Below, piece after piece: positions 31,272-37,684 of a DNA stretch of 64,000 nucleotides (position 1 is the first letter of the stretch; every line of letters starts with the position of its first letter). A model generated the notes under the pieces. The model was not told where the DNA came from, ran no database searches, and saw nothing but the letters and a program-made list of their open reading frames with translations. Origin of the DNA: an uncultured Candidatus Saccharibacteria bacterium (GTDB lineage: Bacteria; Patescibacteriota; Minisyncoccia; Phycocordibacterales; UBA2100); NCBI GenBank assembly GCA_964534465.1, contig CAZHOB010000001.1, positions 33,870 to 97,869 on the forward strand, given 5' to 3'. Position numbers and translations under genes: made by a program.

Positions 31272-31318
31272 AGTCCCGACGCCTACTGGGTCGGGATCCC
31301 GACCGAAGCGTCGGGACT
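31272..31318. repeat. Compound palindromic element, copy B (overlaps the atpH 3' end)
   Basis: AGTCCCGACGC-CTACTG-GGTCGGGATCCCGACC-GAA-GCGTCGGGACT. Shares the CGACGC / GGTCGGGA / CCCGACC / GCGTCG blocks with 36378-36416. Confidence 0.8.
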
Positions 31319-31708
31319 CTCATCAGTTACGTTTTTATAAAGTCTGAGGAGGTGCCGAACGTATGTATTGTCAACCAGGTATTCCCCACCCTCCAAACGC
31401 CATCCGCCGATAAGATTTTCGTCGATATGCACTTCGAGATTCTTCACATCGAGCTTGAGCTGCTCCATCACCTTTTTGGCTTCGGCCTTGGCGTGATGCT
31501 CGTCAGAATGACGGGCGATGCTGAGGGTCATCTTCGTGCGCAAGAGCTCGCGCTGCGCGAGGCGCTCAAACGCCTTGGAGATGCGTGGTAGAAGAATTTC
31601 CCTGCCGTGTTTCTTGAGCAGAGTCCGCAAACCATCCACGGCCTCATGGGCCGTCTTTCCCTTCTCGGAAACCATTCTCCAGAGTGCTTGTGCGTAAATG
31701 TTCTCCAT
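31283..31708 (-). CDS. atpH: F1 ATP synthase delta (OSCP) subunit, short form
   Basis: IGGWRLEGGEYLVDNTYVRHL C-terminal delta signature. The last ~13 codons (DESPDASVGIPTQ) are encoded by the palindromic element. Confidence 0.7.
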   Translation of the reverse strand: MENIYAQALWRMVSEKGKTAHEAVDGLRTLLKKHGREILLPRISKAFERLAQRELLRTKMTLSIARHSDEHHAKAEAKKVMEQLKLDVKNLEVHIDENLIGGWRLEGGEYLVDNTYVRHLLRLYKNVTDESPDASVGIPTQ

Positions 31709-31711
31709 AAT

Positions 31712-32161
31712 TTAGGCCGATCTCTGGCGCATGACCTTTTCCGCGGCAAGCATGGCTGCGCGCGCGATCTCTTTCTCACTCTCCTTGATGGTCAAACGTT
31801 TGGCTTCTTCGGCGCGATCGGCTGCGTCTTTGAGCGTCGCGGCTGCGCGAGCTTCCGCGGCTTTGACCATCTCCGCGGCACTCTCCGATGCGCGGTGGCG
31901 AGCTGAAGCGACGAGCCCTTCGGCCTCGCGGGCAGCTGCGCCTACCATTTCTTGGCTTTTCTCTTTTGCCTCGGCGAGTTTGCCTTCGGCAGCTTCCGCC
32001 ACGCGCACGCCTTCGGCGATCTTCTTTTGTCGTTCGTCGATGATACGAAGTATCGGCTTGTACAGGAAGTATGAAAGGACTATCAGCAACGCGCCGAAAT
32101 TGAACGCCTGTATGAGCAGGAGTTTCCAATTAACGCCGAAGACTGCGAAGAGATCGCTCAT
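31712..32161 (-). CDS. atpF: Fo ATP synthase b subunit
   Basis: N-terminal TM helix plus a long A/E/K-rich helix. Confidence 0.75.
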   Translation of the reverse strand: MSDLFAVFGVNWKLLLIQAFNFGALLIVLSYFLYKPILRIIDERQKKIAEGVRVAEAAEGKLAEAKEKSQEMVGAAAREAEGLVASARHRASESAAEMVKAAEARAAATLKDAADRAEEAKRLTIKESEKEIARAAMLAAEKVMRQRSA

Positions 32162-32182
32162 AAATAACGCTAGAATTCACCC

Positions 32183-32410
32183 TTAGGTGAATTTGATGAT
32201 GAAACCAATGACCAAGGCGAAGATCGCGAGCGCGTCCGTAACGGCGATGCCGATGAACATGGTGGTCTGGATCTTACCCGAAGCTTCCGGATTGCGGCCG
32301 ATAGCTTCAAGTGCGCGACCAACGAGAATACCGAGTCCGATACCCGGGCCGATAACGCCAAGACCCACAGCGAGCGCCATGCCGATTATTTTTGCTGTTT
32401 CTGCGTCCAT
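32183..32410 (-). CDS. atpE: Fo ATP synthase c subunit
   Basis: 75-aa hairpin proteolipid with [12 protein letters not shown] and a conserved acidic residue in helix 2. Confidence 0.85.
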
Positions 32411-32478
32411 GATGGTGAAAAACTTAATTTAGTAATGTTGCTTTCGACCGAACTATCCTATCACAAAACGGCTCAGCT

Positions 32479-34726: not shown

Positions 34727-35590
34727 CTAGAGAATTCGGTCTTTGATGAGCCTCGCCACATCCTTTTCCTTGCCCTTGAAACTATGCTTCACCCTCTCGA
34801 CGATATGTACGTAGTGCGGGGCATTAATGTGGGCATCAAACCACGCCGCGATCTCTTTGACGGGTCTGTCGGCGTACTGGTCTTTGCCCGCCCAGACGAC
34901 CGTGGTCGGAATTTTTATAGATGAGAGGATTTTCGCTCGCTTGCCCGCTTGTTCGTATGGGAACAACGTTTCTACGCTGTCGTGTGTATAGAGGCTCAAA
35001 AAACGTTGTGCGTCGTTGACTGACCACGGCGTAAGGAATTTTTGCGGCATGAGTTCATGCCCGTGCCCACTTTTGACGAGCTTGCGCGCATGCGCAACGG
35101 CTTTCGCTAGAATGCCTTTTTTGTCTGTTTTGAGCGCAGCAGAATAGTCGCTGACCGGAGCAAGGAGAATGAGCCCGTTCACGAACGGCTGTTTGCGGAA
35201 CTTGTGCGCGTACCAAACGGCCTTTTGGCAGCCGGTGGAATGACCTGCGATGTATATCTCCTTTGCGCCCCGCTTCTTGGCAAAAAGGACCGCGCCGCGG
35301 AGGTCGTCGGCGGAATCGCTGAATACCTCGTGCGCTCCGCCCGCGAGAACCGCGCGTTTGCCGCTCAAGACCTTGGTCACGATATCATGGCCGCGATTGT
35401 TAAACGTGAGCACCGCCGTATCATTGCCTATCAAATACTGCGGTAATTCCCTGCTCACGCTGTTGAACATCGTGGAGCAGAGCCCGTGCACAACGATAAC
35501 GGCTCGCTTCGGTTTTCGCGGGCCATACCAAAGTCCATAGAGCACCACCTTCTTCGGCGTAACTATCTCCGCGAGATGAGTTGAACGCAT
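34727..35590 (-). CDS. Alpha/beta hydrolase
   Basis: AVIVVHGLCS ... IYIAGHSTGC nucleophile elbow. Confidence 0.7.
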   Translation of the reverse strand: MRSTHLAEIVTPKKVVLYGLWYGPRKPKRAVIVVHGLCSTMFNSVSRELPQYLIGNDTAVLTFNNRGHDIVTKVLSGKRAVLAGGAHEVFSDSADDLRGAVLFAKKRGAKEIYIAGHSTGCQKAVWYAHKFRKQPFVNGLILLAPVSDYSAALKTDKKGILAKAVAHARKLVKSGHGHELMPQKFLTPWSVNDAQRFLSLYTHDSVETLFPYEQAGKRAKILSSIKIPTTVVWAGKDQYADRPVKEIAAWFDAHINAPHYVHIVERVKHSFKGKEKDVARLIKDRIL

Positions 35591-35647
35591 AGTCAGATAG
35601 TACTATTGTTCGGCAAAAAGAACATGTTCGACCTCGAAGGTCGACCA

Positions 35648-36253
35648 TTATTTATTGATAGCAAGCTCGGCGGTATCGCGACCGAGCGCGAGCTGCAGCT
35701 CCTTTTGCGTCTTCGGCATATGGTCGAGATCAATATGACCTACGACCCGGATTTTTACGTTGTTGCACCAGCCGATCGCTACGGCGGCATTGAGCGTGTA
35801 TTTGCCAAATGTGACGCGCTGCTTGCGGCCAAACTGGATATCGACATGCTTTTTATGACGCGCAGCCATCGTGTCGGTGATAACACGGTATTGGATGTAG
35901 TCCTCCACGGCCGGCAGTTCACACCCTCCCGTTGCGTACTCCGCTGCTCCGGGTGAGAGCTCAATGACCGTGCCGTAAGGCAAGTGGCCGGCAATAAGAT
36001 CGCGAGAGGCGGCAGCTCCTACTTCCGGGTTTACCGGGAGGCCGATGGAGGTAATGTGGGGGGTATCGTCGGTCTGTTCCGGCACATCGTTATAGCCCGT
36101 CATGGAAACGGTGTAAGTCGGATATGTGGGCTCCTCAATAACGGGTGCTTGTTCCTTTGCCCAGTCCGAAGTAGGTACGGTGGACGTGGCGGCATTGGCC
36201 AAAAGAAACAGCCCCATAAGGGCCGTACTAATACTTGGTGTCATTTGATGCAA
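35648..36253 (-). CDS. Secreted hypothetical protein (possible 3D/RlpA-like domain)
   Basis: Signal peptide followed by a beta-rich C-terminal domain; the family assignment is weak. Confidence 0.4.
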   Translation of the reverse strand: MHQMTPSISTALMGLFLLANAATSTVPTSDWAKEQAPVIEEPTYPTYTVSMTGYNDVPEQTDDTPHITSIGLPVNPEVGAAASRDLIAGHLPYGTVIELSPGAAEYATGGCELPAVEDYIQYRVITDTMAARHKKHVDIQFGRKQRVTFGKYTLNAAVAIGWCNNVKIRVVGHIDLDHMPKTQKELQLALGRDTAELAINK

Positions 36254-36377
36254 GTCAGTTGTCCTTGCACTGATAATACTAGCAAATTTGCACTACTGTG
36301 TCAAGCAATTTTATGGCTCTATTGAGCCATAAAATGGTAATAGATATGAATGGCTCTGTATTCTTATGTCCCCTCTC

Positions 36378-36416
36378 CCGACGCATTAGGTCGGGACCCC
36401 GACCTAATGCGTCGGG
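36378..36416. repeat. Palindromic element, copy A (18-bp perfect arms), flanked by 13-bp direct repeats at 36365-36377 and 36428-36440
   Basis: CCCGACGCATTAGGTCGG-GACC-CCGACCTAATGCGTCGGG. The flanks TTATGTCCCCTCT duplicate the last codons plus stop of ahcY. Confidence 0.8.
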
Positions 36417-36427
36417 GCTGCCTTGGA

Positions 36428-37684
36428 TTATGTCCCCTCTTGCCACGAGCTCAGGTACTTTTCCTGTTCTTTTGAAAGCTTGTCGATGGTCGTGCCCATG
36501 GATGCGAGCTTCATGGTGGCGACCATAAGCTCTGTGGCCTCGGGAATTTCATACACGCCGGGCGGAAGCGGCTTTTTCTGGGTCGCCATCCACGCCGAGC
36601 CGAGCGCTTGGGTGGCAAAGCTCATGTCCATAACAGATGCCGGATGACCTTCGGCCGCGGCGAGATTGATGAGGCGTCCTTCGCCGAGCACGTAAATCCT
36701 TTTTCCCTTGACCATATATTCCTGCGTAAACTTGCGCGGGTCTTTGGGCTTGCCGGTGGCAAGCTTTGCGAGCTCCTTCAGATTGATCTCCACATCGAAG
36801 TGGCCGGAATTGCACACCATCGCGCCGTCTTTCATCTTGAGGAAGTGTTCCTTGCGAATGACGTCGATATTGCCGGTGACTGTGACAAAAAGATCTCCCA
36901 TGGGAGCAGCTTCTTCCATGGTCATGACCATGTATCCGTCCATCGCAGCTTCAAGCGCCTTGATGGGATCGACTTCGGTGACGATGACGCCCGCGCCCAT
37001 ACCCTTGGCGCGCATCGCGAGACCCTTGCCGCACCAGCCGTAACCGGCGACGACGACGGTCTTGCCCGCGAGCAAAATGTCGGTGGCGCGGATGATGCCA
37101 TCGAGCGTGCTCTGGCCCGTGCCGTAGCGGTTGTCGAAAAGATTTTTCGTCTTGGCGTCATTGACAGCGACTATCGGCATCTTGAGCGCGCCGTCTTTGT
37201 GCATCGCGCGCAGGCGGATGACGCCGGTGGTCGTCTCTTCCGTACCGCCGAGCATATTTTTGAGCAGCTCGGGATACTTTTGGTGAATGGTCGAGACGAG
37301 GTCGGCTCCATCGTCCATAGTCAGCTGCGGCTTTTGCGCGATGAGCGTATTGATGTGTTTGAAAAACGTTTCGGTGCTCTCGCCTTTGAGCGCAAACGTC
37401 GGGATTTCATATTCCTTCACAAGCGCAGCTGCCACATCGTCTTGCGTTGAGAGCGGATTGGACGCGGAGAGAAAAACATTAGCACCACCGGCCTTGAGCG
37501 TGCGCATGAGATTGGCCGTCTCGGCGGTGACGTGCAGCACTGCCGCGAGCGTCTTGCCCTTAAAAGGTTTTTCTTTTGCAAATCGTGCGCGTATCTGCGC
37601 GAGCACCGGCATGTCTCTGTCGGCCCACTCGATGCGTCGCCTCCCTTCCGCTGCCAGATTTATATCTTTGATGTCGTATTCCAT
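36428..37684 (-). CDS. ahcY: Adenosylhomocysteinase
   Basis: Full-length SAHH with an NAD-binding Rossmann domain ([12 protein letters not shown]). Confidence 0.9.

Follow-up and report, generated by a model that had tools for sequence, protein, structure and literature searches.

Double-hairpin elements (DHEs) have been described from fungal mitochondria, including those of Allomyces, Schizosaccharomyces octosporus and Schizosaccharomyces osmophilus, and DHE-like GC elements occur in Candida albicans, according to PMC10085805 and PMC4618339 (citing Paquin 2000 and Bullerwell 2003). As described there, a DHE consists of two adjacent G+C-rich stem-loops, tens of nucleotides in all; it is dispersed in intergenic as well as intragenic positions, is thought to be mobile and is strikingly conserved in sequence across species. 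All of this recalls the bacterial element described here, called el, and an enzyme is not known for either. The Rickettsia palindromic elements (RPEs) resemble el in another way, since they are palindromic repeats that lie in frame within housekeeping ORFs unrelated to one another, each of which gains a peptide segment (PMC10969869). REPs and REPINs share with it short imperfect palindromes, an arrangement in inverted pairs, the lack of a target duplication and a GTAG-like flanking tetranucleotide (PMC3733652).

The window, meaning the whole 64-kb stretch of DNA that was analysed, contains two copies of el, which a first-pass annotation had taken for members of one family of small inserted elements. 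Further copies, the lack of which would have told against a family, were sought in a scan of species-representative genomes, and at least 117 loci were found in about 90 assemblies, almost all of them Patescibacteria. About 0.5 matches would be expected by chance (an estimate that assumes equal base frequencies). The scan pattern demanded the exact 6-bp stem, so diverged relatives of el are left unsampled. Among the matches listed, a single MAG has up to six loci. No description of el was found in the literature searched. It is quite probable that el is one family of very small insertion elements, widespread in the Patescibacteria (CPR), which insert precisely and are accompanied at gene ends by second copies of those ends.

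Each element, 36-53 nt long, is composed of two adjacent 7-bp hairpins of the form Y-CCCGAC-loop-GTCGGG-R, a unit followed by its inverted unit, and the whole is pseudo-symmetric. Among the matches listed, this form is seen in some 85% or more of 119 copies. A further G follows the 5' arm of hairpin 1, as the first base of loop 1, in 105 of the 119; a further C, the last base of loop 2, precedes the 3' arm of hairpin 2 in 101. The closing pairs, T-A or C-G, covary within each hairpin (b1:n1 in 109/119 and n2:a1 in 111/119 of the matches listed), and the pair b1:a1 of the nested alternative is unlinked in the same 119 copies. The element is therefore two side-by-side hairpins rather than the compound, nested hairpin that had been proposed earlier. 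Long loops often carry extension stems of at least 3 bp (55-64%, compared to 3-6% in shuffles).

In the window, both palindromes are present as the first-pass annotation describes them. Copy A (36376..36417) comprises hairpin 1 at 36376-36396 (T-CCCGAC-GCATTAG-GTCGGG-A) and hairpin 2 at 36397-36417 (C-CCCGAC-CTAATGC-GTCGGG-G). Its arms, 36377-36395 and 36398-36416, have 19 nt each, are 100% complementary and are separated by 2 nt. This perfect palindrome arises because the two loops are complementary to each other, which makes copy A unusual: only 2 of the 121 copies among the matches listed have complementary loops. Copy B, of 43 nt (31274..31316), has hairpin 1 at 31274-31296 and hairpin 2 at 31297-31316; the region 31269-31321 forms an outer stem GATAGTCCCGACGC/GCGTCGGGACTCTC of 14 nt, 93% complementary, around an inner stem GGTCGGGA/TCCCGACC. 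The motif CCCGAC-N4-14-GTCGGG has four matches in the window, all within these two copies, where shuffles lead one to expect 0.01. A relaxed scan of the window that permitted compensated stem variants gave no additional copy. As single strands, the two copies fold far more stably than shuffles (z = -7.3 and -4.6).

Among the matches listed, 47 of 121 copies are inside ORFs (part of these assignments being based on ORF length alone), 47 are intergenic and 27 are at ORF ends, so the specific targeting of gene ends that was suggested earlier does not hold for the family. Thirty-two of the 121 lie deep within ORFs of at least 200 aa, and in 26 of these 32 the length of el is divisible by three (p = 3.5e-8). 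In-frame hosts include EF-G, UvrA, MnmA, an M17 peptidase, an SMC-like protein, Pif1 and RpoD; Pfam confirms host genes that include EF-G, UvrA and MnmA. Within unrelated proteins, el is read in all three frames and in both orientations. It is tolerated in frame because its stems are free of stop codons and most copies have a length divisible by three.

Copies are also present or absent at a given site depending on the relative. No el is found at ahcY in any of 80 relatives (nor anywhere in about 394 kb of contigs from them), at atpH in L199, or at hsp20 in L200 and L203. This bears out the insertion that the first-pass annotation had read into the ends of ahcY and atpH, and it bears on another explanation, that el is a host-selected double-hairpin signal, in RNA or DNA, that is recognised by a conserved CPR protein and is not mobile. 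Such a signal might act in the stabilisation or termination of transcript 3' ends, in the processing of tRNA leaders, or in replication or recombination. The 6-bp stem sequence does not vary between distant CPR classes, in copies found with a pattern that requires the stem; exact conservation of this kind is unusual for a selfish repeat, and a host function could be possible. The hairpin covariation and the extension stems, the recurrent placement of el 12-32 nt upstream of tRNA genes, and the position of both window copies at mRNA 3' ends point the same way. However, el is read in all three frames and both orientations of unrelated proteins and is missing from orthologous sites in relatives, and its symmetry leaves no strand defined. 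An intrinsic terminator combines a G+C-rich hairpin with a T-run behind it; the flanks of the window copies (CTGCC... and CTCTC...) lack a T-run, a terminator scan calls neither copy, and the terminator role suggested earlier is thus unsupported. In Rfam, one tRNA alone reaches the gathering threshold in the window, and el matches no family, the best matches on copy A being eukaryotic miRNA models far below threshold. A host signal of this type is quite improbable.

Two empty sites were recovered for el, and neither shows a duplicated base. The filled site in the window atpH reads GATGAGAG-el-CTATCGG..., compared to GATGAGAGCTATCGC... in the element-free L199, and the filled hsp20 of L099 reads GAAG-el-TTGAAGGTG..., compared to acgaagttgaaggtg in L200 and L203. 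Judged from these sequences, insertion is precise, adding only the bases of el, and has no target-site duplication of its own, since the empty sites are exact and most copies deep within ORFs have lengths that are multiples of three. The flanks have a symmetric consensus, T-N-A-G / C-T-N-A, and where this can be checked (tRNA and coding sequence), T-N-A-G comes from the target. The bias toward gene ends probably reflects a target T(T/A)A(G/A), which looks like a stop codon and like positions 7-10 of a tRNA. A preference for sites similar to T-N-A-G / C-T-N-A would explain the location of el next to stop codons and between tRNA positions 10 and 11 (TAG/CTCA).

The ahcY copy is the one for which a target-site duplication had been claimed. 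The repeat TTATGTCCCCTC(T) stands on either side of copy A, at 36365-36377 and 36428-36440, and its minus strand, (A)GAGGGGACATAA, encodes E-G-T-stop; the 13-mer is indeed made of the final codons and stop of ahcY. The intact gene (36428..37684, minus strand, stop codon 36428-36430) ends in SWQEGT, as in all relatives. On the side of copy A away from the gene, and adjoining it, is a pseudo copy of the ahcY 3' end (36365..36375, minus strand, GAGGGGACATAA), which matches the real gene end (36428-36439) in every base. The first G of GAGGGGACATAA in the pseudo copy, at 36376, doubles as the base that closes hairpin 1. On its other side, copy A adjoins B' (GGCAG, 36418..36422, minus strand), which copies the 5 nt before the repeat in the real gene (GGCAA) with one synonymous difference (CAG versus CAA, Gln). 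A 5-nt spacer, TTGGA (36423..36427), separates B' from the real stop codon. The order is then a pseudo gene end GGCAG/el/GAGGGGACATAA, the spacer, and an intact gene end. The 13-mer belongs to this gene-end layout and is not a classical target-site duplication.

This leaves little room for a classical MITE, moved by DDE cut-and-paste, with a 13-bp target-site duplication and a preference for gene 3' ends. Direct repeats of 12-13 nt do surround copy A, and repeats of 8-13 nt surround many of the tRNA-associated copies, but the repeats are asymmetric, with a further 3-60 nt on one side, the first bases of which copy the other side of the target. Instead of the fixed-length duplication of a MITE, the repeats vary in length between about 8 and about 48 nt, with copies that may be synonymously diverged. 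El is palindromic as a whole, and no related insertion sequence was found near the copies at the loci listed. Simple insertions without any duplication and the exact empty sites already contradict the MITE reading, which is highly improbable.

At atpH, copy B had been described as fused to the end of the gene. It does encode the last residues; however, an ancestral-looking C-terminus remains just downstream. In its present reading the ORF (31283..31708, minus strand) has 141 aa, compared to 128-129 aa in most homologs. Copy B encodes (S)PDASVGIPTQ on the minus strand and overlaps the last 11 atpH codons (...DESPDASVGIPTQ and stop), and the stop codon, TAG at 31283-31285, falls within one of its loops. 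It lies 65 nt upstream of the start, at 31218, of the downstream neighbour atpA (29647..31218, minus strand). The displaced C-terminus (31225..31273, minus strand), (S)YRKHLLSIYNRSTKE plus TAA, lies just downstream of copy B, out of frame (SYRKHLLSIYNRSTKE and stop), and ends 6 nt short of the atpA ATG. Compared to L199 it is identical at 45 of 51 nt, and all six differences are at third codon positions. The B' of copy B (GATGAGAG, 31317..31324, minus strand) is contiguous with this C-terminus in L199 (GATGAGAG/CTATCG...). The C-terminal segment that is now translated (YVRHLLRLYKNVT, 31325..31363, minus strand) amounts to a second, diverged version of the C-terminal helix, with about 53% nucleotide identity to the displaced one. 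The loop variant of copy B (GCTTCG / CCAGYAGGC) is also found in the atpH of L198.

The same layout recurs: a pseudo gene end split by el is followed, after 0-400 nt, by an intact gene end, which lies on the gene-body side of el. It is seen at no fewer than 17 tRNA 5' ends, at ahcY, atpH (including that of the window), rplL and hsp20, and at one gene 5' end (L005). The split copy holds 2-12 nt on one side of el and the remaining gene end on the other. In the tRNA cases, el is always upstream, its left flank being positions 1-10 and its right flank positions 11 to about 20 of the same tRNA. The two hsp20 copies (LKVRSR and stop) differ in 6 of 6 codons, all synonymously, and the two rplL copies, over 13 codons, have nine synonymous and two conservative differences. 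Taken alone, the hsp20 differences look A-biased, which codon third positions account for. A diversity-generating retroelement target was considered and rejected, as the atpH and rplL copies, compared by eye, differ at all four bases.

Second gene ends of this kind could be local, compensatory tandem duplications that restored a broken gene within a single allele. In agreement with this, the gene is always restored by an intact copy, the tRNA and ahcY copies are identical, and the outer edge of the repeat is within 0-3 nt of the gene edge. However, a tandem duplication would also copy el or the adjacent flank, and instead the spacer and the sequence outside the pseudo copy show no relation. 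In protein genes, nearly all differences between the two copies are synonymous, so the copies diverged as coding sequences, and the outer copy is still translated in L198 and L207. Local duplication is unlikely. The synonymous-only differences that are often seen suggest two alleles. Given these differences and the unrelated sequences beyond both copies, the second gene end would most likely have come from another allele, by recombination; the donor may be a sister or a foreign copy, with or without el. Signals of which copy is native are weak in atpH and hsp20 (p ~0.02-0.09).

The element itself would probably move in the form of folded single-stranded DNA, through a putative trans-acting, hairpin-recognising enzyme of the HUH/Y1 type (IS200/IS605 or RAYT). 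Among the 1544 ORFs of the 117 loci listed (8 kb per locus), neither a transposase nor a RAYT nor any other candidate for this enzyme turned up, and no parent IS was seen near any copy at these loci; the recurring neighbours are housekeeping genes. Whether insertion near a gene end is mechanistically coupled to gaining a second end from another allele or lineage is a tentative idea, possible at best. One route might be a break close to the element, or a DNA end protected by its hairpins, which homology-facilitated illegitimate recombination would then resolve, these bacteria being naturally competent. If the coupling were true, el, far from a passive repeat, would represent a novel kind of mobile DNA that moves between CPR lineages along with short stretches of host genes; tRNAs and other essential targets would be protected, their ends being regenerated, and new peptide segments would be seeded in core proteins.

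IS200/IS605 elements and the miniature PATEs derived from them move by "peel and paste," with hairpins in place of terminal inverted repeats and no target duplication, as is known from IS608, and like el they insert next to a short specific target. Their ends are asymmetric and strand-specific, whereas el is pseudo-symmetric, and no TnpA or TnpB was found near el (117 loci listed, 8 kb each). Gene-end duplications are known to accompany mobile insertions in mitochondrial genes, for example Allomyces atp6 with its inserted endonuclease ORF. As with el, the insertion is close to a gene terminus; the gene gains a functional terminus, often that of another lineage, and the resident one persists as a fragment next to the insertion. 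There, a homing endonuclease gene explains the transfer, whereas el, at about 40 nt, encodes no enzyme.

The closest analogues, by likeness of features, would be the fungal DHEs, the RPEs and the REPs/REPINs. Membership in a strict REP/REPIN family, inverted palindromic pairs mobilised by a RAYT encoded once per genome, is rather doubtful. The unit plus inverted unit, each 19-33 nt long, imperfectly palindromic and with one base bulged out, and the absence of a target-site duplication speak for it, and the T-N-A-G flank recalls the GTAG head of many REPs (PMC3733652), but this flank derives from the target where checkable, and covariation backs two separate hairpins and not one long REPIN hairpin. 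REPs are extragenic, high-copy (tens to hundreds per genome) and linked to a RAYT gene that the repeats typically flank, whereas el is often intragenic, no less than a quarter of the copies listed being within ORFs and in frame, no RAYT gene was seen at the loci listed, and its copy number looks modest, a high one being without demonstration. Like RPEs, el is inserted in frame in unrelated conserved ORFs, but RPEs, which are confined to Rickettsia, measure about 100-150 bp and encode a longer conserved peptide, whereas el, of about 40 nt, serves in all three frames and has tRNA 5' regions among its targets. With DHEs, el has in common adjacent hairpins as a conserved unit and differences in presence and absence. 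To our knowledge, DHEs are known from mitochondria only, whereas el resides in free bacterial genomes spread over a phylum-level radiation, with a defined CCCGAC/GTCGGG stem, frequent translation in frame and duplications of gene ends.

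Both palindromes that the first-pass annotation placed at gene ends are present in the window, and its proposal that they belong to a family with further copies is borne out. Copy A, at the 3' end of ahcY, has fully complementary arms of 19 nt each (36377-36395 and 36398-36416) with a 2-nt gap, and copy B (31269-31321) overlaps the last 11 codons of atpH (ORF 31283..31708, minus strand), with the atpA start 65 nt beyond. The motif CCCGAC-N4-14-GTCGGG occurs four times in the 64 kb, always in copies A and B, where shuffles predict 0.01 occurrences; a relaxed scan of the same 64 kb gives no further copy. 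Elsewhere, a scan of one genome per species with the pattern CCCGAC-N4-14-GTCGGG-NN-CCCGAC-N4-14-GTCGGG finds at least 117 loci, compared to a chance expectation of roughly 0.5 matches (24 fixed bases, equal base frequencies assumed). Among the matches listed, which come from about 90 source assemblies by contig prefix, the family is found almost only in Patescibacteria. Nearly all of these matches are labelled Patescibacteria/CPR (Kaiser-, Adler-, Nomura-, Zambryski-, Yanofsky-, Vogel-, Wolfe-, Doudna- and Gottesmanbacteria, Paceibacterota and Minisyncoccia), and single MAGs contribute up to 6 loci. Matches in Rhodoplanes, a GC-rich viral contig and perhaps Oligoflexia look like chance. Viral contigs hold no copy of the element, their sole match being a GC-rich GTCGGG-repeat region. 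Rfam returns no relevant match at gathering or permissive thresholds, and a full-text literature search gave no account of an element of this kind in CPR bacteria. At ahcY, the element is absent from 80 of 80 relatives' loci, with 0 copies in ~394 kb of their contigs, so its distribution is patchy, as fits inserted DNA.

A minimal subfamily of 36 nt has 4-nt loops (e.g., CCCT / TTCG) and no bulged G/C. It predominates in MAG CAZKWN01 (L034, L061, L080, L091, L098, and L114) and also occurs at L025, L076, and L085, mostly inside ORFs, where it encodes the peptide ...PTEVG(T/V)PT.VG.... Those of L025 and L091 lie within larger peptide repeats, so a part of the subfamily may consist of ordinary coding repeats.

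The conserved structure of the element is two side-by-side 7-bp hairpins, because the closing pairs covary and the outermost bases do not. In 119 listed copies, the base 5' of each CCCGAC pairs with the base 3' of the matching GTCGGG; the closing pair of hairpin 1 is T-A in 59, C-G in 50, and other in 10, and that of hairpin 2 is T-A in 63, C-G in 48, and other in 8. The outermost bases of these 119 show no mutual covariation. The closing pairs thus support two separate hairpins and not the compound, nested palindrome described earlier. A nested or compound hairpin is possible in both window copies, as something the two happen to allow and not a conserved structure; mutually complementary loops occur in only 2 of 121 listed copies, one of them copy A. 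Of the 119 listed copies, 105 have a G at the start of loop 1 and 101 a C at the end of loop 2, which makes hairpin 2 an inverted hairpin 1 and the element pseudo-symmetric. Among listed copies, 55-64% of the loops of at least 8 nt contain an additional stem of 3 bp or more, versus 3-6% in shuffles. A variant element at L095 has stems changed with compensation (TCCGAC/GTCGGG with a G-T pair; GCCGAC/GTCGGC).

The element inserts precisely and prefers a symmetric target, and in-frame copies are tolerated inside proteins. The flank consensus of the listed copies is T-(T/A)-A-(G/A) on the left and the reverse complement of the same on the right. Two empty sites illustrate the precision, with no bases duplicated or lost at either. 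At atpH, the window reads GATGAGAG[43 nt]CTATCGGAAACAC...TAA and the element-free relative L199 reads GATGAGAGCTATCGCAAGCAC...TAA; at hsp20, L099 reads GAAG[45 nt]TTGAAGGTGCGGAGCCGCTAG and the element-free L200 and L203 read acgaagttgaaggtgcgcagccgatag. For ahcY, the predicted empty-site junction GAGGGGACATAAGAATACAG had no match in metagenomes, and the AhcY relatives reached through the protein are at most 84% identical, with downstream regions that show no alignment. An exact look-up of the window AhcY and AtpH proteins returned no record of either. Of 121 listed copies, 47 lie inside long ORFs, 47 are intergenic, and 27 are at ORF ends. Pfam-confirmed hosts include EF-G (in the variable loop preceding NIIDTPGH), UvrA, MnmA, an M17 aminopeptidase, an SMC-like protein, RpoD, glycosyltransferases, and three Pif1-like helicases. 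Among the listed copies deep within ORFs of at least 200 aa, 26 of 32 have a length divisible by three (p = 3.5e-8). Translation runs through them, giving peptides such as SRRPKGVGIPTKTSG or NPDAPKDVGAPTKASG, and all three phases are used.

The target looks like a stop codon and, in many cases, is palindromic locally, as illustrated by elements that directly follow a stop codon with zero gap (L029 3382-3421, L089 6042-6080, L112 5979-6017, L081, and L083). Their junctions include ...TGGTAG|element, ...AAGTAG|element, ...ATTAA|element|TTAAG, and ...AGTAA|element|TTACT. In the three Pif1-like helicase genes, which come from different MAGs, the element is in frame and occupies two different positions (L015 1537-1581, L072 2461-2505, and L031 5955-6000). 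Pif1-type helicases accompany rolling-circle transposons in eukaryotes, and their occurrence here could be accidental, reflect a hot spot, or hint at a functional link. In orthologs from two other loci (L062 4582-4625 and L032 5876-5919, in two MAGs), the element sits at an identical position, in the context ...ihgivkevv[APT..VGVPTE.SG]eekldi..., and the loops alone differ. Either the insertion is old and was inherited, or the element has homed to this site repeatedly.

The most interesting part of the behavior of the element is the pattern of gene-end regeneration beside it. This layout recurs, with a pseudo gene end interrupted by the element and an intact gene end nearby, and tRNA genes are among its sites. 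All 15 listed copies within 150 nt of a tRNA gene are upstream of it (15/15), and several more lie 200-400 nt upstream. Their left flank is positions 1-10 of that same tRNA plus 0-3 nt, the element falls exactly between positions 10 and 11 (TAG|CTCA), and the 4-12 nt after it are the same tRNA from position 11 on, for example, TATACCGGCAG (a tRNA-Pro), TTCAG, CTTAG, and TTCAATGG. An unrelated spacer then follows, and after it the intact tRNA. Two origins of the spacer were rejected: a decayed copy of the tRNA body (mean z = 0 versus shuffles) and a tandem copy of the sequence upstream of the pseudo fragment (identity at chance level except at L005). At L095 (5969-6230, minus), two nested pseudo-5' fragments of one tRNA-Thr lie upstream of the intact gene, with a canonical element after position 10 and the variant element after position 15.

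Copy A shows the same layout. The 13-mer TTATGTCCCCTC(T) that flanks it at 36365-36377 and 36428-36440 had been taken for a target-site duplication, which it is not; it belongs to the pseudo-end arrangement shared with the tRNA cases. The order is the pseudo end GAGGGGACATAA, the element, GGCAG, TCCAA, and the real end GGCAA-GAGGGGACATAA, where GGCAG and GGCAA differ synonymously (CAG versus CAA). ahcY (ORF 36428..37684, minus strand) ends with the repeat at 36428-36440 (...Q-E-G-T-stop). As AhcY ends in ...SWQ(E/H)GT* in all relatives, the real end in the window is ancestral.

At atpH, copy B has this arrangement too. AtpH homologs are named Kaiserbacteria or Paceibacterota, which assigns the window to an organism of that kind; they are 128-129 aa long and end in ...LVDxSY(K/R)KHLLSIYNxxTxx*. 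The window protein reads ...LVDN-TYVRHLLRLYKNVT-DES-[element: PDASVGIPTQ*], and directly past copy B, out of frame, comes (S)YRKHLLSIYNRSTKE-TAA, ending 6 nt ahead of the atpA ATG. This displaced copy, together with 8 nt across the element, is identical to L199 at 53 of 59 nt, and within its 51 coding nt the 6 differences all fall on third codon positions, which means that the displaced copy was, until recently, the C-terminus that was translated. It shares only ~53% identity with the copy translated now. A C-terminal element is also present in three other AtpH homologs (P0051/L198, P0068/L207, and P0085). L198 and L207 have it in frame, with the outer copy (YNRATQ* or YNRATE*) as the true C-terminus; the loop variant of L198 is that of copy B, with both closing pairs compensatorily changed.

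Similar pairs of ends are found at L100 (rplL; intact ...KKLEEAGASVELQ*, beyond the element KKLEEAGAQIELQ*), where 9 codons differ synonymously and 2 conservatively, and at L099 (hsp20; intact ...TKLKVRSR*, beyond the element LKVRSR*), where 6 of 6 codons differ, all synonymously. At L005, the 5' end of an unnamed gene is involved (pseudo MTPETKNCQ before the element, intact MNTETKQCQ... after it). That the real hsp20 C-terminus of L099 is an inserted foreign patch was rejected: 120 homologs share the ending INKKRQTKLKVRSR of the intact copy, which marks the gene as normal and the copy past the element as the additional one. For atpH and rplL, a DGR-like mutagenesis of adenines between the two gene ends was rejected. 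Since the differences are almost all synonymous, both gene-end copies were coding during divergence; either both are translated, which is the case in L198 and L207, or each derives from a different allele or lineage. Identity profiles (atpH/atpA versus L199; hsp20 versus L200/L203) single out neither copy as native.

The element is probably mobilized as folded single-stranded DNA by a hairpin-recognizing enzyme of the HUH/Y1 type, as suggested by its insertion at a short specific target with no target duplication and by the conservation of its hairpins over its sequence. All ORFs of the at least 117 loci were clustered, and recurrent or element-overlapping clusters were scanned with Pfam; only housekeeping genes appear among the matches listed, and no element-associated enzyme was found. 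The second gene end would come from recombination with another allele and not from local duplication. One junction is always 2-12 nt from the element and the other 0-400 nt past the gene end, an asymmetry suggesting that the element defines one junction, by way of a break close to it or a DNA end protected by a hairpin.

The proposed terminator role is unsupported, as neither window copy was retrieved by a terminator scan; copy A would put a very stable stem-loop at the 3' end of the ahcY mRNA. The window has other palindromes. At 36308-36335 (and 36276-36304, minus), a perfect 12-bp hairpin, ATTTTATGGCTC-AATA-GAGCCATAAAAT, lies just upstream of a strong sigma-70-like promoter (TTGACA-17-TAGTAT) of the gene at 35648-36253 (minus). 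At the equivalent spot downstream of ahcY, a GGCTC...GAGCC hairpin is kept in relatives L128, L139, L140, and L143, and the hairpin there could serve as an operator or terminator. Two copies of a 28-nt palindrome, ACTCTCACATTCTT|AAGAATGTGAGAGT, at 44700-44727 and 45039-45066 (~340 nt apart), near the only tRNA gene of the window (44577-44648, minus), look like a repeated operator-like site. Adjacent imperfect palindromes at 7882-7926 and 7928-7968, with 19-20-nt arms that are 89-90% complementary, are unrelated to the element in sequence.

The genomes of CPR/Patescibacteria are tiny and streamlined and are thought to be poor in repeats. A ~40-nt element with one invariant stem across Kaiser-, Adler-, Nomura-, and Gottesmanbacteria and many others implies that either a trans-acting machinery has been conserved or DNA is often exchanged across the radiation. 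Its presence inside EF-G, UvrA, RpoD, MnmA, and the ATP synthase delta subunit affects protein evolution as well as annotation, where ORFs become extended or truncated and pseudo-tRNA fragments appear. If the gene-end layout reflects the insertion mechanism, recombination between lineages of uncultivated bacteria would become directly traceable. We could not find a description of a tRNA D-arm target combined with gene-end regeneration in the literature searched.

To our knowledge, the mechanism of mitochondrial double-hairpin elements is still unknown. Among the closest mechanistic candidates are miniature elements derived from IS200/IS605, by comparison with IS608. The REP/REPIN-RAYT system is the other (PMC3733652). 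The element is not a REP sequence in the strict sense, which is extragenic. Nor is it a MITE, as had been suggested, since it lacks a target-site duplication. In behavior, the closest analogue is the Rickettsia palindromic element (PMC10969869), and in structure it is the fungal mitochondrial double-hairpin element (PMC10085805, PMC4618339), of which the present family would be the first bacterial counterpart.
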